Virus record (IMG/VR): IMGVR_UViG_2909298281_000005
Direction: 5' to 3' (one strand)
DNA from: a virus
Lineage: Duplodnaviria; Heunggongvirae; Uroviricota; Caudoviricetes
DNA length: 47,442 bases
The first letter of the stretch is position 1, and every line of letters begins with the position of its first letter. A program made the position numbers and the translations under genes. Below the pieces are notes generated by a model. The model was not told where the DNA came from, ran no database searches, and saw only the letters and a list, made by a program, of their open reading frames with translations. This document shows, piece by piece, positions 1 through 47,442 of the stretch.

Positions 1-1284
1 TTACAGACTTCTGGAAGGTTGCACAGCTCTTACAACACGCGGTTGATCTTCCGCAGCGTCTTCCAGCGCACTTAAATCACGGTCTTTCACTTCTGGCATT
101 TTCAGCGCAGAGATTAAACCAATCACTGAATATGCCATGATCATAATGGCGATCGGATACCAGGATTCCGTCATGGTGCAGAAAATACCCGCCAGGATAG
201 GACCAAAACCGGAAGCGATAAGACCACCAATTTCTTTAGAAATGGCCATCCGGGTAAAGCGGTTTTTACAGCCGAACATTTCTGCCATGGTAATGTTTTC
301 CAGAGCAAATAATCCCAGCACCGCACAGTTATGAATCACAATCAGTGCAACCATAATGGTGCTCGGGGCATAGCTTTTATCTACAATGATAGAAAGCATT
401 GGCCATGCCAGCACAATCGCGGAGGTATTCATAATAATATACGGGATCCGGCGACCAATTTTATCGGATAACCAACCAAGGAACGGAATGGTCATAAAGC
501 CGAGAATCGAACTAATCATCAATGCATCTGTTGGAATTGCTTTGTTAAACAATAACGTCTGCACTAAATAGCCTGCAAGGAAAGTCTGAATTAACCCGGA
601 GTTACCCGCCTGACCAAAACGCAGCCCTGTTGCCAGCCAGAAGGATTTGCTCTGGAACATGCTACCAGCAGGTGCAGGTTTTGCTGTGGGTTGGTTGCTG
701 TCATTAACCTTCTCAAAGACCGGGCTTTCTTTCAGATTCATACGTAACCAGATAGCAAAGACCATCACGACAACGCTCGCCAGGAACGGTATACGCCATC
801 CCCACGCCAGCAGTTCCTCTTTACTGAGAATGAAGAACATAAAGGCCCAGATTGCCGTTGCGCTCAAGGTTCCGCAGTTAGTTCCCATAGCTACAAATGA
901 GGAGATAATTCCGCGCTTACCTTTTGGTGCATATTCCGCCAGCATCGTACCGGCACCGGAAATTTCCGCACCTGCACCCAACCCCTGAATAATACGCAGC
1001 GTCACCAGCAAGATGGGGGCAAAAACACCAATCTGTGCATAGGTCGGTAACACACCAATTAAGGTGGTACAGATCCCCATCATGGTGATGGTAATAAAGA
1101 GCACTTTTTTACGCCCTATTCTGTCGCCCATTTTGCCGAAAATAAATGCTCCGACAATACGCGCCACATAACCTGCACCGTAGGTTCCCATTGCCAAAAT
1201 TAACGCCATTGCCGTTGATGATTCAGGAAAAAATATTTCATGAAACACTAACGCTGCGCCGAGCGAATATAACTGGAAATCCAT
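1..1284 (-). CDS. ydfJ: MFS family metabolite:H+ symporter, YdfJ-like; stop codon at 1-3; N-terminus looks shortened (begins inside the conserved YDF..Y...FFP region)
   Basis: 427-aa ORF with multiple hydrophobic segments and MFS-like motifs (GKMGDRIGRK, ...GWLSDKIGRR); ydfJ is recalled as the chromosomal gene flanking the Qin prophage in E. coli K-12. Confidence 0.75.
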   Translation of the reverse strand: MDFQLYSLGAALVFHEIFFPESSTAMALILAMGTYGAGYVARIVGAFIFGKMGDRIGRKKVLFITITMMGICTTLIGVLPTYAQIGVFAPILLVTLRIIQGLGAGAEISGAGTMLAEYAPKGKRGIISSFVAMGTNCGTLSATAIWAFMFFILSKEELLAWGWRIPFLASVVVMVFAIWLRMNLKESPVFEKVNDSNQPTAKPAPAGSMFQSKSFWLATGLRFGQAGNSGLIQTFLAGYLVQTLLFNKAIPTDALMISSILGFMTIPFLGWLSDKIGRRIPYIIMNTSAIVLAWPMLSIIVDKSYAPSTIMVALIVIHNCAVLGLFALENITMAEMFGCKNRFTRMAISKEIGGLIASGFGPILAGIFCTMTESWYPIAIMIMAYSVIGLISALKMPEVKDRDLSALEDAAEDQPRVVRAVQPSRSL

Positions 1285-1575
1285 AATTCACAGATGTTTT
1301 TTCTCATTCTGTGGTTTCCTTGGCGCTTTCTAGGTTTTTTCAGATAGTTACATTTTTTCAAAAGCATCCTGAGTTCGATCTTACTATCTATCTGTGGCCT
1401 ATTTCTGTCCCATATATGCCCCAAAAAACACCCCAACAGATAAGCAGTCTTTTCATGGTGTTACGCGTAAAAACAATAACGGCTTGAAATTATTCAATAC
1501 ACTCTCGAAAGTGCATCAGCCAACCGCAGAACGTTATTGCATACAACGTTTCTGCGGCATATCACGAAACGATTA

Positions 1576-1650
1576 CTTAATGACTGGGACTTCAGACCAC
1601 TCAATATCCGGTACAATTATGTATCAACGCAGTTTAACAACACCCTATAT
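1576..1650 (-). pseudogene. degenerate remnant of a tail fibre assembly (tfa) 3-prime end
   Basis: Minus-strand translation ...VPDIEWSEVPVIK-stop resembles the C-terminus of the intact Tfa at 3018 (...[12 protein letters not shown]-stop); in-frame stop upstream. Confidence 0.4.
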
Positions 1651-2000
1651 TTAATCCAGAGTGCGAGCAACGTTGTCCCTTTCTCTTTTGCACTCTTAAA
1701 ATATACGATTACTTAAGTGAAGATGCTTGACGAATCGCCAAATAAAACATCTTCATCAGCATAAAAATCCATATATGATTGAAAATTTAGCCATTAATAC
1801 CATTCATATCTGAATACTGACCTAATATGCTTACTAACCGTGAGAAATCTTTTTTTTCGACTTAATCACTCGAAATAAACTTTCACTCAATTGAAAACAA
1901 TTAGCTACAATTATCATTGCAATATCAAATCAAACATAACAACTTGCATAAATTCTCATGGGATACAGCATCAGTTGTGCCAAACACATAAGGAATTGAA

Positions 2001-2198
2001 ATGGACGGAGAAAGCTTTAACTTTGATGACAATGATATTGAATTTATTGCTTCAATGTATGCATCATGTAAATTATCAGGAAGTATCGCCCCCATAATGC
2101 ATATAATGGTTAGCATTCCAAGAAATAAGAAAAAACAATTCTACGAACGAGTTGAGCATTATTGTAGTTTATATTCCAATAAAAACCCACCTTCTTAA
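2001..2198 (+). CDS. hypothetical small protein (65 aa) in AT-rich segment
   Basis: ORF preceded by AAGGAA about 6 nt upstream of ATG; no recognisable domain. Confidence 0.25.
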   Translation: MDGESFNFDDNDIEFIASMYASCKLSGSIAPIMHIMVSIPRNKKKQFYERVEHYCSLYSNKNPPS

Positions 2199-2330
2199 AT
2201 TCGCTGCATTCTAGTGGATTCCATTAAGAAAACAATGACATACACTCAAACACATCTTTTTTATCAACAGTGAATTTCAGTTCGGCCAGTTTTTACCAGC
2301 TATTATAAAAATAGCATCCATATAAAGTTT

Positions 2331-2440
2331 TTACCCCACAGGTACAGCTGGCCATTCGATAACCGCACTAAGGAAGTGCCAACACGATATCAGCAAGACC
2401 CGATATTTCTTCCATGCCGCCAGCAACGATGTTAAGGTTA
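2331..2440 (-). pseudogene. remnant of a second tfa 3-prime end (about 35 codons)
   Basis: Minus-strand translation ...[32 protein letters not shown]-stop parallels the Tfa C-terminus ...[32 protein letters not shown]. Confidence 0.5.
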
Positions 2441-3017
2441 AATTAATTATAAAAAAATATATTATAATTCCATCTTCGCATTAAATTTTAACCTTTAATC
2501 TCCACACGGAACAAGTTGCATAGGTGACTATATTAGGAAAACTTATAACCACCAAAACATTTGCTTTGCAAACAAAAACAGTGACCATTGACTCTAAGAA
2601 AATTCCGATCTATTGTTAGGGTCATCAAAGTTACTTAACAGTATTCCGAAATGAAAATACAAAGCAAGCTAATTGTCTTATTAAACATTATCATTGCATT
2701 TATATTATTTGAGCTTTTAGCTCAAAAATTTGGTTTGAGTACATTATTTTAAAGCAAGATAAACAATATCGGGCACTCTAGTTTTTATAATTAACAATTA
2801 AACGTCCATAAAATGTTATTTACTTTTGTTCGCTATTGTCATATCTTAATATAGTGGCTTACGCCACTCTACTTTCATCACATTTTGTACGTTTATGTAC
2901 TCGCTATGAAGCTCTTTCATGGCGATTTTTTATTCTTAATCCAAGAACATACTCCCTACCTATAGCAAAATCACTTTTTGAACAAAAGAATAACGTATTT
3001 AGGTAATCATTACGAAT

Positions 3018-3599
3018 TTACCCTATAGGTGCTACTGGCCATTCAATATCCGGTGCAGTTGTTGTATTAACACGGTTCAGCAACACCCGATACTTTTTCC
3101 AGGCTTCCAGCAACGAGTTTTCTTCCTCCGTTGCGATTTCCAGATCTACAGCATCCTGAAGTGGCGCAATATGCTCATTCGCTGCCTGCATCAGGCTGTT
3201 TTTTGTTTCTTCCGCCTCCCGGATCCGGAATAGTTTTTCTGCTTCTGCATCTTTCACCCAGGCTGTGCCGTTCCACTTCTGATATTCCCCTCCCGGCGAC
3301 AACCAGGTAACATTTTCCGGTAACGAGCCAAGTTCAGAAATAAATAACGCGTCGCCGGAAGCCACGTCATAGACGGTTTTTCCCCGATGATCTTCAACGA
3401 GATGCCACGATGCCTCATCACTGTTGAAAACAGCCACAAAGCCAGCCGGAATATCTGGCGGTGCAATATCGGTACTGTTTGCTGGCAGACCTGTATGAGG
3501 CGGAATATATGCGTCACCTTCACCAATAAATTCATTAGTTCCGGCCAGCAGATTATAAATTTTTATGGTCCGTGGTTGTTCACTCATTCTGAATGCCAT
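3018..3599 (-). CDS. tfa: tail fibre assembly protein Tfa
   Basis: 193-aa ORF directly downstream of stf; translation closely resembles lambda Tfa as recalled. Confidence 0.85.
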
Positions 3600-6500
3600 T
3601 ATGCAAGCCTCACAATATAGTTAAATGCGATGTTTTTGACGGTGTTTTCCGCGTTACCAGCAGCGTTAACGGTGATGGTGTGTCCATGTGAACCAATCGC
3701 AACGGAGTGCGTGTGTGCACCAATACCGACAGTATGTGCGTGTGCACCTGCAGATGCTGCTGTGCCGGACAGTGAGTGGCTATGGTTACCATCTGTACTG
3801 GTATTAGCTAACGCCCCCGTAGACATACCTACTGAGCCTTGCACACCCCAGGTATTTTGACCTGAGCTTGTATAACCATATTGATAAGTATCTTTAAAAA
3901 CACTGGGGTTAAATCGACGGCCATCTCTATGGCTGTGATTACCAGCTGCATTCGTGCTGCCACTTAAACTATGGGTATGCGCACCAGTGTTATTCGTGGA
4001 TTTAGTGCCGTAATCAAACGACGATGTGGTTTTCGTCCCCAAATCAGTACTGGATGCGCTGGCGCTGTGGGTATGCGATTTTATGCCGTCCTGTTCCTGA
4101 GACAATACGGCACGACCACTGGCGGGCTTGCCCTTAATCGTCCAGCCACGCATATCAGGGATCACGCCTGACGGATAAGCGGCTGCAAGTTTCGGGTAGG
4201 CAGATTTGTCAAAAGTCTGCCCCTGCATCAGGGCATAACCAGACGGAACGGTATCTGATGGCCACGGGATTGGTGCGCCGACTGGGTAGCTTTCTGGTGG
4301 AAGATTTTTCGAGGTATAAACTTCTGCCCAGTCTTCCTCAAAACCATAACCGTCTCTTGAAGAACGGTAGAACAGACCACCATTTCTGTAATGCGCCTTC
4401 ATCTGCAAGGTCCGGCAACTTCCGACTCCGGTATAGAAGTTAACCAGAATATAGCTGTCGCCAGAGCGGGTGACATTATAAGCGCCTGATTCGGCATTCC
4501 AGGGAACGCCACCATCCGCATCGGCATATGTATCCGTTGCCCTTCTGGCAAAAGCAGCCACATGCGCGGCGGTTAAAGTAATATCTTTGGAACCATCAAA
4601 CTCAACACCAGAAACCCGTCTTGGCGTTTGCAGCTTTGTTGCTGTTAATGCATTACCGTTCAGACTTGCGGACAGTTTGGTTCCAATAACCAGTTCGCCG
4701 GTTGCGTTATCAATAGCAAACGGTCTTAATGTATTCCAGCCACCATAAACATCACCTTGATTGGTAAGCAGCAGGTAAGTTTTAGCGCCATCATTACGCC
4801 ATAATGCCCCATACTCCCCACCTATCATTCGAATCTGATTACCACCACGCGCTACAATTTCGTCTGTGGCAAAAAGTTTTTTGCACGACAAGTTATCGTT
4901 AACGATTAACGAATGAGACTCATAAAAACCACGCCCACTCTTAAAATCAAGGATAACGTCCGCCGCGATACATTCAGTCGCCGGATTTGTTGCCCCAAAC
5001 TTATAGGTCGTATCATTAACAACGAGATCAGTACCAGGTGCGGATATTGACAGGCCATCTTCGATAAACGCAAAAACAGGGAAAGCAGCGCCATCAACAT
5101 AGAACACAGAGCGCAAATCATCGCCCTTATTACTCATCATTATTGAGTGGATGGCTCGTTCATTGTTTTGATATTGCCAGAACATTCCATAAGCATAACG
5201 CCCCCTGTCAGTCCAGCCACCAGGCATAACAAATCCGTTAAACTCGCAGTTATTCATCGGATCGCCTGCGGTTCGCGTTGCCGTGGTGATAATGACCCTT
5301 GATGCCAGTTCGCTTACTGAGCCAGCAGAACGCATAACAACAACAGGGTAATATTTTCCAGATGTTGCACCTGCAGGAGCGTTAACCCGCACATAACGCA
5401 TACCACGCTTATCAGCAAAGTCTGTTTTACTGACCGCGTTAATGTTGTTCAGGAAGCGTCCCTTATCGGGTATATCAGCGCCGTTCTGGTCTTTCTGCAG
5501 ACGTTTCTCTGCATTGTCATAGGCTGATTTTACTGCCTTTGGCGTTGCCGCCAGCGTTTCAGACGTACTGTTGGTCGCACTGCTGAGCTGTACTATCCCC
5601 TTTTTCGTCGTACTTGCATCCTCAAGCGCCACGGCGGATGCAATATCCTCTGCCCGTTTTGCCGCTGTCTCGGCGCGCGTTGCCGCGGATTCCGCCGTAC
5701 TTTTGCTCTGTGCTGCCGCCGTCGCACTGCCAGCTGCCTCTGTCGCCTTCGTGGATGCTGTCGTGGCGCTGCCCTTCGCTGCGGACGCTTGTCTGGTCGC
5801 CTCATCTTTTGAAGCAGACGCCGATGATGCCGATGACGCCGCCGAACTGGCGGACGATGCGGCAGCCGTTTTTGAGGATTCTGCGCTGGTTTCCGACGCT
5901 TTCGCGTTCGTCTCGGATGTCTTCGCTGCGGAAGCAGACCTCGCTGCTGCGCTGGCCTGTTCAGTGGCTTCGCCAGCCTTCGTTGTGGCTGTTGAAGCAG
6001 ACGATGCGGCGCTTTCTGCCGATTTTCCGGCGGCGCTAGCACTGGCTGAGGCCTGCCCGGCACTTGTTGACGCTGCACTGGCAGACGACGCAGCCGCTGT
6101 TTTTGAGCCTGCCGCAGCCGAGGCGCTCTGTCCCGCTGCCGTTTCAGAAGACCTGGCGTTTGTCTCAGACGTCTTTGCCGCCTTCGCGGAATTGCCTGCC
6201 GCCGTTGCCGAGGAAGCGGCACTACTGGCGCTTGATGATGCGTTCGTTTCTGATGATTTCGCTGCCTCTTTTGAGGCCGCCGCATCCCGGGCTGAGGTGG
6301 CTGCTTCTGACGCCTTCGTGGTCGCGGCGGATGCAGAAGTGGCTGCTGATTGTTGTGACGCTGCCGCATTCGTTTCTGACGTTTTCGCCGCAGCGGCACT
6401 GGTAGCTGCCGCGCTTTTTGAGGACTCTGCAGCAGCAGCACTTTTCGATGCTTCACTGGCCTTTGTTGATGCCGTTCCTGCGCTGGAAGATGCTGACTGA

Positions 6501-6997
6501 GCCGACGACGCGGCCTGTCCGGCTGACGTGCTGGCTGCGCGTGCTGAGCCTGCAGCATCAGTCGCATGGGTTGCCGCCTCACGGGCTGATGTGCCGGCAT
6601 CGCTGGCTGACTTCTTCGCGGCTGCCGTGTTCTGTGCCACCGCGGACGCGTTACGCGCCACCTCTTCCACCATCAGTTCAAAACGGCGCAGTGCCTCAGG
6701 ACGGGCATCATCCTCCGTCATGGCACCGAGAAAATCATTCAGCGTACCGGGTCGGGAATCTTCATACACGGTGATGGTCCCGGCATGTGACGGCGGGAAT
6801 CCCTCCACCAACAGAATAACGCTGTACTGCCCGTACTCAACGTCCATGCTGTAACGCCCGGCTTCATCCGGATTTTCTGAGGCCAGCGTGTTCACCACCA
6901 CCGTGGTGCTGTTACGTTTTGCTTTCAGCTGGATTGTGCAGTTCTGTACCGGTTTTCCTGTGCCGTCTTTCAGTACACCTGAAATCTTTACTGCCAT
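3599..6997 (-). CDS. stf: side tail fibre protein Stf (mosaic; Ala/Ser-rich repeat region; C-terminal His-rich HxH repeats)
   Basis: Long ORF; N-terminus [17 protein letters not shown]... and C-terminus ...[31 protein letters not shown] match lambda Stf as recalled; start taken at ATG 6997 (track start 7003 is GTG two codons upstream); GGGGTG 5 nt upstream. Confidence 0.85.
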
Positions 6998-7008
6998 ATT
7001 CACCCCAC

Positions 7009-7728: not shown

Positions 7729-10700
7729 TCAGCTGATACTGATGCCTGCGGTGGCTTTCTTCATCACCACAACCAGCAAATCGCTGATACTTGCTGTGGG
7801 ATACCAGTCATTTACCAGCCATGCTGACACCGAAAACTCCAGCGTCATGTGGCCGTGACCAGCTGGCATATCAATAACACCACTGTAAATCAGCGTATTA
7901 TCCAGCGCGGTACGGTTATAAATTTCAGCACCATTTTTCTTCACTATCAGGCGGCATGACGAATAAATATCGTTATTCTCCCGCTCATGTTTAGCGCCGC
8001 AGAATGCCACCGCCGGAATAACAATTTGCCTGTCAAAAGGCTGATCGTCATAAATCCTGACGGTAATGGTCCCTGATGGCCACCGCTCCGGTGCCCGGGA
8101 GTCCCGCGGGAAAGCCTTACCCACTGTTTTGACAATATCGCCTTCAATCTGGTTGGCTGACAGTTTCCCTTTAATCTGACAGTTCTCATTTATCGTAACG
8201 TTGTTGAGCGTCCCGGAGTTCGCATTCACACTGCCACTGATATCTGCATTTTTAGCGGTCAGCTTTCCGTCCGGTGTCAGGGAAAATGCAGGAGGATTAC
8301 CGCCGCTGGTAATGGTGGGAGCCGTCAGATATTTCAGGAACACTTCATTCATGAATATCTGATCACCCTGACCAACAAACATCGGTTTTGTGTTGCCATT
8401 TGCAGGATTAATCATCGCAATCCTGTCTGCCGCCAGCAGCACCTGACTCTGCATTCCTGCTGGCGTATTCTCAATACCGGCACCGATACCCGCAATATAA
8501 AGGCGTCCGTCCTGCATCTGCTGCAGTTTCACGGCCCACATGCTGTTCAGGTTATTATTTGTATCAACCTGAACTTTCTGTATCTGCTGGATTGCCGCAC
8601 TCTGATTTTCCAGTTTTTTATTGACGGTCTGCGTGATTTCATTGCTGACATTCGTAATGGACGTCCTGATTTCAGCCAGGTCCGGCGCAAGCTGACCGTT
8701 ATCAATCTGCGTCCACAGCTCCTGGGCCAGATGTGTTTTCCCGATTTCTCCTTTGAAAAAATCCAGGTAACCTTCCGCATCATCGCTCGCCCGACCGACA
8801 GCCTCCACGAATGCCGATTTGCCAACGGTGTTCACACTGCGAACGTAAAAATAATAATCATGGCCCGGTTTGATATTGATACTGGCGGCTATCCAGTACA
8901 GCGCCGTGCCAAGATAGCGGGCTGTGGTTTCAACCTGCCTGATATCGGTAATCCGCTTTTCCGAGAACCAGAACTCAAACTGTACCGTCGGGTCATAAAC
9001 CGCAAGATGCGGCGTGGCGGTTATCTGAAAATAGCCCGGCGTCAGCTCAATCTGTGACGGCGCTGCCGGTGCGGCAATCCGGAACGATACCGACGCCGGA
9101 TCGCCCTGCTGCCCCCACGCATTTACCGCCCGGACTGTCAGCCTGTAGTTCCCCAGCGCCAGCTGTGTGAAGCGGTATGTGGTTTCCGTCGTCCGGGCCG
9201 TGCTGACCAGCCGCTCACTGCCGTCATCCGCTGTTACGGTCAGACGGAGCAGGAAGCTCACGCCCTTCACCACCTTCGGCGTGTCCCAGCGCGCCAGCAC
9301 CTGATATTCCCCGCTGTCTGCGGTGACTTCGGCGGTCAGGTGCTGCACCGCTGGCGGCGTGACACCATTCACCGTGCCGCTCTGGTCGCCGTCAAAGTGC
9401 GCCCCGTTATCCACGATGGCCTCTTTTTCAGGTACATGCTGCACGGCGGTGATGGCATACGTGCCGTCGTCGTTCTCACGGATACTCACGCAGCGGAACA
9501 GGCGCTGGCGCAGCGTCGGCAGCTTCAGTCCCCACACGCTGTATCCGGCAACGCCGTCAGGAACACGGCTCACTTTCACCTTCACGCCGTCAGTGACGGA
9601 CTGGACCTCCACGCTCACCGGATTCCCCTGCCCGTCAACCAGGCTTATCAGCGTGGTGCCGGAGGATGGCAGCGTGATTTCACGGTCGAGCGTCAGAGTC
9701 CGGGTCTGGCTGTTCACCGCCAGCACGCGACCGCCGGTGCTGATACCGGCATAGTCATCATCGCAGATTTCAATAACATCGCCCGGCACATGGCGAAGCC
9801 CTTCTGCGCCCACGCTGAAATCCACGGTCTGCGTTTCCAGCAGTTCCGTTTTAATCAGCCACAGCCCGGCGCGGTGCGCCTGCCCCTGGCTGGTACAGCC
9901 AAAGGCATCCATCTTCATAACATTACGACCGTAACGGGCAATGGACTGCGTATCTTCAACAAGCTCTGTCGCCGTCTCCCAGCCGTTATCCGGGTCAATC
10001 CAGTTCACCTCAACGGCATTATGACGGTCCTTCAGGGCACTGAAGCTGTAGCGGAACGGCGCGCCATCATCCGGCATCACCACATTACTGCGGTTATAGG
10101 TCCACACCTTATCCGACGGTCGGTCCTGCACGAACGTCAGCGTCTGCCCGTTCCATACCGGCATACAGCGCATCGCCGAGCAGAAATCACTGAGAACATC
10201 CCACGCCTTGCGCTGTGTGGTCAGCCAGGCATTACAGGTGATGCGCGGCTCCGTGCCACCAAAGCCATCCGGCACCGACTGGTCGCAATTCTGGCCGATG
10301 ACATACAGCGCCCATTTGTCCACATCCGCCGCACCGAGACGCTTCCCCATGCCGTAGCGCGGATGGGTCAGCATATCCCACAGACACCAGGCCATGTTGT
10401 TGCTGTATGCTGGCTTAAACGTTCCGTCCCAGATACCGCTGTATTGCCGCGTCTGCGGGTTATAGTTCGACGGCACCTGCAGAATGCGCCCGCGAAGATG
10501 ATAATTACGGCTCACCTGCTGGCTGCCGAACTGTTCCGAGTCCACCTGCACGCCGACCAGTGCCGTGTTCGGGTAGCACTGTTTCACATCGATGATTTCG
10601 GTGTATGACGACCAGAGCGTTTTGTTCTGCAGCTGGTCTGTGGTGCTGTCCGGCGTCATTCTGCGCATCCGGATATTAAACGGGCGCGGCGGCAGGTTAT

Positions 10701-21807: not shown

Positions 21808-23316
21808 TTATTCTTCGGACTGGTCGTCGGTGTGCTGCGGCTCCTGTCGTTTCGTTGCGGCACTGCTGCCTCCTTTATCACTGGCCGGATCGGTATCAAA
21901 TACCAGATCCAGCTTGCGGTTTTCATCAATTTCGGCCTTGCGCCGACGTTTGACATCATCCGGATTACGACCACCTGCACGTACCCAGTCTGATTCTGTC
22001 GCCGCTCCACCACGAATCTGGATTTTCCAGGCCTCAGCCTCCTTAACAGGGTCAATCCACGGCATCACCGGTCCGGAATACACCGCGGTATACAGTGAAG
22101 AAAGGTCAAGATCGCGGGGTAGCCTGATAACACCGGATGCCACAGCCTGTTTCAGCCAGGCACGATACATCGGACGGGTGACGGCACCAATAAACCAGTC
22201 CTGCAGGATCAGGTAGCCATCAGTGGATTCAACCAGCTCCTGACGCTGGGCGCTGTAAGTGCCGTTATAGTTGCGCGCTGTACTGGAAAAACTCAGACGA
22301 CTGCCCGCCGCCACGGCACGCAACTGACCATTACGAAAAGTTTCAAGGTTAGGATTTGGGCGATCCGACTTCACCATTCCGATTTCTTCGCCGGGTTTCA
22401 GATCATCGTAAATAATGCCTGGCTGAATGGTAAGCTCGCGTTCCTTATCCTTGCTGCCATTACCATCCGCTTCATAGCTCTGCCCGTCGCCTTTCCGGAT
22501 GTACATCCCCAGAGCAGCGGCGATCCTTGCTGCAGTCAGCTCAGAATCTTCATACTCTTTCAGGGCACTGAGGCGGATCAGCACACCGGACAATAAAGAC
22601 GTCCCGCGCATCTGGTGCAGACGGCGAACAAATTTAAGATGCAGCATTCGCTCTGCATCCACTTCTTTGGTTTCCATCTGCCGTCCGGATACGGGACGGC
22701 TTTTATACACCAGATATTTTTCGGGACGCCCCCAGTCATCAACAAACACGCCCTGATTCAGCCTGTTGCTCTCATCACTGGTCATGGGAATAAAGTCCGG
22801 CTCGAGCGCCTCCAGCCAGAAATGAACACCGGCAGAAGGCGTCAGGCTGTTTATGCGCCCGGAAACCATCTGGGCAAACACCTCACCATCGCGCAGCCAG
22901 GTACGAAGCATCAGACGTTCCAGCATCGGACGGGTAAACTGCCCGGTGACTTCCGGGCTGACAGACCATTCACTCCATCGGGTGCGAATCTCCGCAGCCA
23001 GGTCACGGGCAATGGCCCCATTGCGTAATACCGGATGTGGCTCGACAATAATCCCGTTTTTCCCCACCACCCGTTCTTCCAGCTTGTCAAATACACCAAT
23101 AACCAGATCGTGGTTGTTATCAAGGTAACGGGCCTGCTCACGTAACGACACGGCCCCGTACTGGCTTAACTGGTCGGCAGTTCGGTTCTCCCGTCGGGCT
23201 TTGTGTGTCCGCGTCGTTTTTACGGCCTCATAAGCCTGGATCACCGCACGGGAACGCAGCCTTGCCGCTTTCCATCCTGGTGAAAAAACGCCAATCACAT
23301 CATCAAGAATTGCCAT
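21808..23316 (-). CDS. portal protein
   Basis: About 502 aa from ATG at 23316; located between W-like gene and protease as in lambda B. Confidence 0.8.
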   Translation of the reverse strand: MAILDDVIGVFSPGWKAARLRSRAVIQAYEAVKTTRTHKARRENRTADQLSQYGAVSLREQARYLDNNHDLVIGVFDKLEERVVGKNGIIVEPHPVLRNGAIARDLAAEIRTRWSEWSVSPEVTGQFTRPMLERLMLRTWLRDGEVFAQMVSGRINSLTPSAGVHFWLEALEPDFIPMTSDESNRLNQGVFVDDWGRPEKYLVYKSRPVSGRQMETKEVDAERMLHLKFVRRLHQMRGTSLLSGVLIRLSALKEYEDSELTAARIAAALGMYIRKGDGQSYEADGNGSKDKERELTIQPGIIYDDLKPGEEIGMVKSDRPNPNLETFRNGQLRAVAAGSRLSFSSTARNYNGTYSAQRQELVESTDGYLILQDWFIGAVTRPMYRAWLKQAVASGVIRLPRDLDLSSLYTAVYSGPVMPWIDPVKEAEAWKIQIRGGAATESDWVRAGGRNPDDVKRRRKAEIDENRKLDLVFDTDPASDKGGSSAATKRQEPQHTDDQSEE

Positions 23317-45717: not shown

Positions 45718-45906
45718 ATGAAAACGTTATTACCAAACGTTAATACGTCTGAAGGTTGTTTTGAAATTGGTGTCACTATCAGTAACCCAGTATTTACTGA
45801 AGATGCCATTAACAAGAGAAAACAAGAACGGGAGCTATTAAATAAAATATGCATTGTTTCAATGCTGGCTCGTTTACGTCTGATGCCAAAAGGATGTGCA
45901 CAATGA
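45718..45906 (+). CDS. dicB: cell division inhibitor DicB (62 aa)
   Basis: MKTLLPNVNTSEGCFEIGVTISNPVFTEDAINKRKQERELLNKICIVSMLARLRLMPKGCAQ; GAGGA upstream. Confidence 0.8.
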   Translation: MKTLLPNVNTSEGCFEIGVTISNPVFTEDAINKRKQERELLNKICIVSMLARLRLMPKGCAQ

Positions 45907-46736: not shown

Positions 46737-47049
46737 AAAGGCGTCTATAACGTTAAAAATGTGATTGTTGCCGATCGCATTGATGAACGACTGGAAAAAG
46801 CGAAAGAGAGCGGGGCAGACTGGGCGATTAATAACAGCCAGACACCGCTTGGCGAGATTTTCGCTGAAAAAGGCATCAAGCCGACATTAATTATCGATGC
46901 GGCTTGTCATCCTTCTATCCTGAAAGAGGCCGTAACGCTGGCTTCTCCAGCGGCACGTATTGTATTGATGGGCTTCTCCAGTGAACCGTCTGAAGTGATT
47001 CAGCAAGGAATTACCGGAAAAGAACTCTCTATTTTCTCTTCACGCTTAA
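46737..47049 (+). pseudogene. internal fragment of a Zn-dependent (MDR-type) dehydrogenase gene trapped between two IS1 copies (possibly rspB-like)
   Basis: In-frame from IS1 end to next IS1 end: ...VIVADRIDERLEKAKESGADWAINNSQ...IIDAACHPSILKEAVTLASPAARIVLMGFSSEPSEV...; no start or stop of its own. Confidence 0.55.
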
Positions 47050-47442
47050 GGTAATGACTCCAACTTATTGATAGTGTTTTATGTTCAGATAATGCCCGAT
47101 GACTTTGTCATGCAGCTCCACCGATTTTGAGAACGACAGCGACTTCCGTCCCAGCCGTGCCAGGTGCTGCCTCAGATTCAGGTTATGCCGCTCAATTCGC
47201 TGCGTATATCGCTTGCTGATTACGTGCAGCTTTCCCTTCAGGCGGGATTCATACAGCGGCCAGCCATCCGTCATCCATATCACCACGTCAAAGGGTGACA
47301 GCAGGCTCATAAGACGCACCAGCGTCGCCATAGTGCGTTCACCGAATACGTGCGCAACAACCGTCTTCCGGAGCCTGTCATACGCGTAAAACAGCCAGCG
47401 CTGGCGCGATTTAGCCCCGACGTATCCCCACTGTTCGTCCAT
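47050..47442 (-). mobile_element. second IS1 copy, inverted, truncated by the window edge
   Basis: Starts GGTAATGACTCCAACTTATTGATAGTG (reverse complement of IS1 right end); sequence identical to copy 1 where compared. Confidence 0.85.
47065..47442 (-). CDS. insB: IS1 InsB (partial, runs off window)
   Basis: Track ORF identical in translation to insB of the first copy. Confidence 0.8.

Follow-up and report, generated by a model that had tools for sequence, protein, structure and literature searches.

The 47,442-nucleotide (nt) stretch of DNA recorded as IMGVR_UViG_2909298281_000005, hereafter called the window, is an Escherichia coli prophage of the Qin-type lambdoid group. Close to one end of the window, a 1.7-kb segment rich in A and T separates the truncated host gene ydfJ from the tail fibre genes. 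Within this segment, two 3' remnants of the gene tfa, named R2 and R3, alternate with two AT-rich layers, named segments A and B, each of which carries one small open reading frame (ORF) of 33 or 65 amino acids (aa), respectively. The interval 1276-3017 corresponds to the b region of phage lambda together with attR. The features of the locus, by position in the window, are as follows.

1-1284, minus strand: ydfJ', the 3' 427 codons of the major facilitator superfamily (MFS) transporter gene ydfJ, truncated by prophage integration (ORF list)
1276-1286: att core GAAATCCATAA, 11 base pairs (bp), the tail-side prophage-chromosome junction; attR by lambda convention
1287-1557: phage attP arm, by homology to the K-12 Qin end and to phages
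1466-1572, minus strand: "tfa-downstream" piece, DNA that follows the stop codon of lambda-type tfa; overlaps the attP arm
1573-1692, minus strand: R3, a tfa 3' stub and putatively the oldest; comprises ~38 terminal codons and the stop codon (1573-1575), with a frameshift and in-frame stops
1693-2330: segment B, AT-rich moron layer whose native place is directly 3' of a tfa stop codon
2001-2198, plus strand: 65-aa orphan ORF, WP_001421370.1, a RefSeq hypothetical protein
2331-2429, minus strand: R2, the other tfa 3' stub; comprises 32 terminal codons and the stop codon (2331-2333), middle part out of frame
2430-2438: filler of ~9 nt (TGTTAAGGT), a non-homologous joint between R2 and segment A
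2439-3017: segment A, 3' of a tfa 3' end; putatively the youngest moron layer
2588-2616, plus strand: sigma-70-like promoter candidate (TTGACT, 17 nt, TATTGT), from a consensus scan (9/12), 35 nt upstream of the 33-aa ORF
2651-2752, plus strand: gene for a putative YncL-like small membrane protein of 33 aa, MKIQSKLIVLLNIIIAFILFELLAQKFGLSTLF, assigned by conservation, substitution pattern and the YncL profile
2853-2868, plus strand: 6-bp hairpin AGTGGC TTAC GCCACT in the 3' untranslated region (UTR), from an RNAalifold consensus; where C has become U, pairing (U-G) is retained on the plus strand alone
2901-2932, plus strand: intrinsic terminator with a 10-11 bp stem (2901-2925) and a T-run, from a terminator scan and the alignment fold
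3018-3599, minus strand: intact tfa, 193 aa, Pfam PF02413 (Caudo_TAP), E 4e-43
3599-7003: side tail fibre gene (stf), 1134 aa

The att junction and the tfa stubs

An earlier reading of the window, made from the sequence alone and referred to here as the original prediction, had described 1285-3017 as AT-rich. This description holds: GC content was 0.27-0.39 across 1601-3000, as compared to 0.43-0.52 in the flanking ydfJ and tfa, and segment A on its own had 27-33% against 46-52% in tfa. At least 80% of 1285-3017 was covered in 578 of 5426 complete E. coli genomes, with hundreds at an identity of at least 99%. In ECC-1470, the NCBI Prokaryotic Genome Annotation Pipeline (PGAP) placed a single annotation within these bounds, the 65-aa ORF as a hypothetical protein, and labelled ydfJ' as "incomplete, missing N-terminus". 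The truncated gene is 92% identical to K-12 ydfJ, matches the metabolite/H+ symporter profile TIGR00883 (E 6.5e-136), and begins at an internal Met whose ATG (1282-1284) falls within the att core.

The 11-mer GAAATCCATAA is common to both ends (attL and attR) of the K-12 Qin prophage and occurs as a single exact copy in the window. In phage Tritos, attP reads GAAATGCATAA, with one mismatch to the core, and lies exactly at the switch from int-side to tail-side homology. A lambdoid att site is recognised by one short core shared by both prophage ends and attP, with homology switching at that core, and this is the configuration found here. The original prediction had placed the prophage-chromosome junction inside 1285-1600; the core lies instead at the far left edge, at 1276-1286, and 1287-1557 is attP-arm DNA. 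No second att core or near-core was found within 1287-3017.

The attP arm is 92% identical to the K-12 Qin end and 86-87% identical to Tritos, HannyBb, PhiR42_1 and mEp460_ev081, where it comes directly after the integrase gene. K-12 and Tritos both part from the window at 1557 and continue into ydfK, pin and their own tfa. Overlapping the arm, the tfa-downstream piece matches DNA just after tfa in lambda (from 1522); it also follows tfa or a tfa stub in mEp460 and Salmonella phage SPF_0923, follows segment A in BH100 and GF130, and is present in ESDR8 and Sx181. It contains an imperfect inverted repeat or hairpin of 12-13 bp (1524-1557; CCGCAGAACGTT...AACGTTTCTGCGG), the end of which coincides with the point where K-12 Qin and Tritos diverge.

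The intact tfa has a full-length Caudo_TAP match of 147 bits, for a gathering cut-off of 22.1. Other prophages retain its last ~143 nt (3018-3160) as a stub; in those with an S74-type fibre, homology to the window stops at 3160, and PGAP labels the stubs partial tfa. The original prediction had proposed two further tfa remnants on the same strand. Both are real and align to tfa with significant similarity by tblastn and blastn; R3 is longer than first given, covering 1573-1692 rather than 1576-1650, and R2 covers 2331-2429. The translation of R2 ends in IEWPAVPVG and the stop codon and matches Tfa residues 162-193 (tblastn E 8e-8), and its DNA is 77% identical to the 3' end of K-12 tfaQ (blastn E 3e-14). 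R3 spans Tfa residues 156-192, with tblastn matches to 156-179 and 183-192, and is closest to lambda-type tfa (81.4% identity to lambda 22438-22609, E 2e-37). Neither stub is a complete in-frame gene; both are gene fragments of 32-38 final codons.

A repeat finder and sub-threshold matches to the Rfam family IS009 (RF02111) each detected both stubs independently, with R2 assigned to direct-repeat families D1 and D2. The IS009 scores were 41.7 bits for R3 and 33.1 bits for R2, both under the gathering threshold of 117 bits, and the Rfam search over 1100-3300 returned nothing besides IS009 on tfa sequence. The family is typed as a small RNA (sRNA) gene. Its 212-bit match in the window, at 3058-3256 on the minus strand, lies wholly inside the coding sequence of the intact tfa, and what IS009 captures is apparently the 3' coding DNA of tfa, not an RNA in its own right.

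Two small plus-strand ORFs under purifying selection

The 33-aa ORF, which the original prediction had read by hand as a possible membrane peptide or toxin-like gene, is present in the ORF list exactly as read. All 55 fetched copies, which comprise 6 DNA alleles and 4 protein variants, have an intact ORF, as do 24 of 25 complete copies from metagenomes. Damaged copies were rare: one metagenome contig (L069) had ATA in place of ATG, and in another copy (P0030) a 1-nt frameshift in an AAAAA run altered the last seven residues. In comparison with the Sx181 allele, whose surroundings are only ~75-80% identical to the window, we counted 12 synonymous and 7 non-synonymous changes over 19.7 and 79.3 sites, giving a ratio of non-synonymous to synonymous rates (dN/dS) of 0.07 (Fisher p 3.6e-6); neither of the other two forward frames is open. 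The ORF is free of insertions and deletions (indels) between flanks that both carry several, and its stop codon is kept despite a neighbouring 5-nt deletion. An RNA hairpin at 2708-2726, inside the ORF, was considered as the cause of conservation and rejected; it is not kept in the diverged allele, and thus coding, not RNA structure, explains the conservation at 2708-2726.

The sole family match of the peptide was to NCBIfam YncL (NF000537; E 1.3e-5, 25 bits), covering positions 1-28 of 30. YncL (b4598) is a 31-aa stress-induced inner-membrane protein of K-12, and it scores 68.6 bits on the same profile. Because the profile score of the phage peptide is below the curated cut-off, we call it YncL-like and not a YncL equivalog. 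Five composition-matched shuffles of the peptide gave no YncL match, and the peptide and YncL were reciprocal best hits among 17,522 six-frame peptides. The two proteins are of near-identical length and align without gaps from Met1 to residue 28 (39% identity by BLASTP), and both have Asn12 within the hydrophobic stretch and, after that stretch, a basic residue directly before Phe-Gly. They differ in that the 33-aa gene is phage-borne whereas yncL is chromosomal, in the patD-ortT interval; yncL has the Shine-Dalgarno sequence AAGGTGG whereas the 33-aa gene has none, and their flanks are without similarity at the DNA level. Taken with the purifying selection, this sub-threshold match supports the first of the two suggestions, a membrane peptide.

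Overproduction of YncL depolarises the membrane, condenses the nucleoid, and lowers membrane potential and viability (PMC12542507). By analogy, the 33-aa peptide, if expressed from the prophage, might depolarise the membrane as YncL does. Chromosomal yncL was also among the targets of KilS, an sRNA from the 3' UTR of Rac prophage kilR, in RIL-seq (RNA interaction by ligation and sequencing) data (PMC8175672), which are unrelated to the locus described here.

Searches outside the known carriers of the 33-aa ORF added little. Two exact-pattern scans of GTDB, with one genome per species, gave no copy beyond the E. coli strains already found, and a metagenome scan gave no further allele lineage. 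A tblastn search of the phage collection with the peptide and YncL was empty, probably because of the low-complexity filter; three phage records do contain the ORF in identical form. Neither the 33-aa nor the 65-aa ORF had a family in PHROGs or PADLOC, and the 33-aa ORF is left unannotated by PGAP in every listed genome and likewise in the three phage records. A full-text literature search for work on tfa remnants, the peptide string and the conserved 3' UTR string found nothing relevant.

The 33-aa ORF lies in a compact setting. Of 35 unique copies, 34 retain the -35 hexamer of the promoter candidate, and the 80%-diverged allele is one of them. Conservation within segment A peaks further downstream, at 2853-2932 (lowest column variability), where it exceeds that of the ORF itself, and three one-sided substitutions in the 3' UTR hairpins preserve pairing on the plus strand only. 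The layout of this block, with a hairpin, ~30 nt that are mostly unpaired in the prediction, and a terminator with a U-run, resembles that of a 3' UTR-derived Hfq-type sRNA; it had no match in Rfam.

The 65-aa ORF was found exactly as the original prediction had read it, with a good ribosome binding site (Shine-Dalgarno AAGGA at 1990-1994, 6 nt before the ATG), and both small ORFs proved to be conserved in related prophages. Its allele in ESDR8 has the same length, start, stop and Shine-Dalgarno sequence and no indels, with 46 of 65 residues identical and DNA identity of 79%; dN/dS was 0.28 (Fisher p 5e-4). Relatives were found only in E. coli. AlphaFold predicted a three-helix fold, with a predicted local distance difference test (pLDDT) score of 69, and no Pfam match, PDB sequence match or significant fold match was obtained. 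Two assignments were tried and rejected, namely GlgS (NCBIfam NF002793; 14-16 bits against a cut-off of 105, hhalign probability 7%) and a HOT/theta-like protein, which was the best fold match yet had an E value of 0.8. The view that the ORF is unconstrained, which came from its changes relative to Sx181 and from its frameshift variants, was dropped after the diverged ESDR8 allele gave a dN/dS of 0.28. The 65-aa ORF is probably a real, fast-evolving orphan. The A-run AAGAAAAAACAA at 2124-2137 within it is a frameshift hotspot, and several database variants have alternative C-termini from that point.

Staged arrangements in other genomes and the order of the layers

Among 5426 complete E. coli genomes, 831 (~15%) have segment A, with nothing annotated under it, and 591 have segment B; segment B had no match in the phage collection. 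In 55 tabulated copies of segment A, a tfa 3' end adjoins almost always and the other side varies. In the window, tfa homology ends at 2429, and homology among segment A copies begins at ~2439. Segment A has its own terminator and is found in mEp332, ev099 and PhiR70_1 while being absent from lambda and K-12 Qin. In some E. coli strains, insertions of IS1 break segment A or segment B.

Other genomes hold these elements in simpler or further altered arrangements. In lambda and mEp460, tfa or an R3-like stub is followed by the same downstream piece. A prophage near prfC in ESDR8 has an intact tfa, immediately followed by a copy of segment B (80.6% identical), R3 and the downstream piece, and the point at which segment B starts after the tfa stop codon is co-linear to the base with the R2 stop codon of the window. 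The cultured phages mEp332 and ev099 have stf, tfa and segment A contiguous at 95-98% identity, without the older layers. In Sx181, window positions 1466-3160 are present as a block beside sitABCD; here a tail fibre with an S74 endopeptidase domain stands in place of stf and of all but the 3' end of tfa, which persists as a third stub (partial tfa in PGAP), and the order reads S74 fibre, tfa stub, segment A', R2, segment B, R3. Comparable stubs occur in NDM1, GF130 and mEp460. The arrangements in ESDR8, mEp332/ev099 and Sx181 support the suggestion of the original prediction that the remnants are scars of repeated tail-fibre module exchange. Identity of Sx181 to the window is 97-99% for 1490-2540 and ~75% for 2540-3017, with a sharp recombination breakpoint near 2545. 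In other prophages too, the stack, or segment A alone, directly adjoins the sitABCD iron/manganese transporter operon.

Taken together, we consider it likely, with good confidence, that 1276-3017 is the tail-side end of a Qin-family prophage in ydfJ that was built by serial replacement of the tail-fibre module and by the gain of small-gene morons. The ancestral state would have been a lambda-type tfa, ~290 bp and attP. The tail-fibre module would then have been replaced twice by DNA that brought its own tfa and a small downstream moron, each time with the downstream joint falling within the last 100-120 nt of the resident tfa (100-160 nt when the third stub of Sx181 is counted too); because the joint fell inside that gene, a tfa stub would be left behind. 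The first replacement would have produced the order tfa, segment B, R3, and the second the order tfa, segment A, R2, segment B, R3. The joints are non-homologous, and 9 nt of filler lie at 2430-2438. The finished stack may move among prophages by homologous recombination, with conserved tail genes as one region of homology and tfa-3' or tfa-downstream DNA as the other. Both layers carry a single small gene on the plus strand, antisense to the late operon. In segment A, a candidate promoter, the ORF and a terminator form a compact unit whose product would be a YncL-related membrane peptide with a single pass; the gene of segment B encodes an orphan of 65 aa that is predicted to be helical.

Several observations weigh against parts of this interpretation. 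The order of events was read from extant arrangements and not from a dated phylogeny. Relative to Sx181, the 65-aa ORF has 2 synonymous and 5 non-synonymous changes, and frameshift variants of it exist, rare as they are in comparison with the intact form. For the 33-aa ORF, the dN/dS range of 0.05-0.07 draws on only three diverged allele lineages. Its four alleles scored 22.5-27.1 bits (E 3e-6 to 7.5e-5) on the YncL profile, against a curated cut-off of 35, and a hydrophobic sequence of 33 aa limits the statistical power of that match. An exhaustive search of 1.84 billion representatives returned the peptide itself and one frameshift variant only. The ORF has no recognisable Shine-Dalgarno sequence. 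The promoter candidate agrees with the consensus at only 9 of 12 positions, in a region with fewer such matches than its shuffles, and because the shuffles gave more matches the scan match alone is not significant. Finally, 2872-2908 served as the search pattern for the viral-contig set, and its invariance there is in part built in, although BLAST-derived copies (L008-L011) support it independently.

The stubs and the AT-rich DNA might alternatively be the tail ends of earlier tandem prophages at ydfJ that have since been deleted, and the original prediction had allowed for earlier prophages at the same site. A history of this kind would suit the position of the segment next to the att site and the other cargo (ynfT, ydfK, pinQ) that K-12 carries at the same place. 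However, 1287-3017 lacks a second att core or near-core, the same stack (1466-3160) lies beside sitABCD in Sx181, segment B stands behind tfa near prfC in ESDR8, and segment A is found within cultured phage genomes. Tandem prophages are therefore highly improbable, and we regard this explanation as largely refuted: given the staged arrangements in other genomes, serial tail-fibre replacement fits and tandem prophages at ydfJ do not. The tfa 3' stubs could themselves be under selection, as structured RNA (IS009) or as portable homology arms that move small-gene cassettes during tail-fibre swaps. Both stubs match IS009 (E 1e-7 and 2e-5), they recur beside segment A in several unrelated prophage contexts, and R3 is 92-98% conserved across contexts whose neighbouring DNA is 63-80% identical. 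Yet the IS009 scores are far under the gathering threshold, and the lone full-score match lies inside the intact tfa coding sequence, whose conservation is accounted for by coding; frameshifts and stops occur in the stubs, which are just 55-69% identical to intact tfa ends, and the identity of R3 across contexts may reflect recent shared ancestry of the block. Selection on the stubs is unlikely. A broader proposal, which we offer as a minor and speculative possibility, is that the layers are active cassettes, each made of a tfa 3' end as homology arm and an antisense gene, with the YncL-like peptide mildly depolarising the host membrane and the 3' UTR giving rise to a regulatory sRNA. Were this so, the peptide might serve superinfection exclusion, control of lysis timing, or a tolerant low-energy lysogen state.

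One or both of the small ORFs could instead be chance reading frames in decaying AT-rich DNA, in which short ORFs are abundant. The 33-aa ORF has no Shine-Dalgarno sequence, and its exact peptide was called on only 2 contigs in a collection of 15 billion proteins; the 65-aa ORF matched no family, and frameshifted variants of it occur. Against this stand the dN/dS values (0.05-0.07 for the 33-aa ORF and 0.28 for the 65-aa ORF, with significant Fisher tests), the conservation of length, start and stop, and the freedom from indels beside indel-rich flanks, and we give chance ORFs little credence. It is also conceivable that the 33-aa ORF encodes a type I toxin, whose antitoxin would be an antisense RNA from segment A. 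The peptide is short and hydrophobic, YncL overproduction lowers membrane potential and viability (PMC12542507), and an antisense transcript would start from a weak promoter-like site on the minus strand at 2842-2813. This assignment is very unlikely, however: the diverged allele does not preserve the -35 hexamer of that site, no Rfam toxin or antitoxin family and no PADLOC entry matched, YncL is not known as a toxin-antitoxin toxin, and the conserved hairpins favour the plus strand.

Known systems at this map position and side features of the window

Exchangeable effector loci are reported to lie downstream of tail-fibre genes in lambdoid prophages of enterohaemorrhagic E. coli (EHEC; Tobe et al. 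2006). Those loci share with the present segment a variable AT-rich cargo at the same map position; unlike them, the window has no type III effector-like ORF here, and the cargo consists of two very small genes.

The tail-side end of K-12 Qin has the same att core, the same attP arm (92%) and the same insertion in ydfJ, and its tfaQ is 94% identical to the tfa of the window. In contrast to the window, from 1557 onward ydfK and the Pin invertase take the place of R3, segment B, R2 and segment A. K-12 Qin also carries ynfT, a 37-aa hydrophobic member of the YnaM/YnfT family (8891-9004 of the K-12 Qin locus), in the same interval; since ynfT occupies the interval of the stacked layers, small membrane peptides recur at this prophage position. 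In lambda, R3 and ~52 nt of DNA downstream of it have an 81% identical counterpart at 22438-22609, and the b region has the same place on the prophage map, between the tail fibres and att. Lambda goes on to ea47, ea31 and ea59, whereas here the stub stands alone, with two later layers on top.

The unit around the 33-aa ORF looks like a classic moron of the kind that lambdoid phages carry (Juhala et al. 2000 and Cumby et al. 2012, as cited in bioRxiv 10.1101/2024.10.15.618418). Segment A resembles those morons in that its small ORF lies between conserved phage features and comes with a promoter-like site and an intrinsic terminator, and also in having a lower GC content than its surroundings, a patchy distribution among relatives and an orientation against the late operon. 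It differs from them in that its cargo is a 33-aa peptide unannotated in any record, and in that each layer here is tagged by the stub of the tfa behind which it came, so that the order of acquisition can be read.

The region exemplifies known processes, phage mosaicism and moron accretion, and our findings leave current concepts unchanged. They go modestly beyond routine on two counts, the legible order of acquisition and an unannotated, constrained YncL-like peptide gene in segment A. The segment is an unusually clean stepwise record of receptor-binding module swaps and small accessory gene gain in lambdoid phages, with every intermediate stage still extant in sequenced genomes. Standard annotation misses the 33-residue peptide gene, even though three cultured phages, as well as ~15% of the complete E. 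coli genomes, contain its carrier segment. With YncL as the sole detectable relative of the peptide, the phage-borne version gives a concrete handle on the role of this class of small proteins.

At the other end of the window, DicB (45718-45906) is followed by an IS1 that cuts the prophage. The integrase, attL and the 5' part of ydfJ are absent from the window; the int-side att junction is missing because of an IS1-associated deletion. An internal fragment of rspB (46761-47054; PRK10083 positions 189-284) sits between two copies of IS1, the second of which is inverted.

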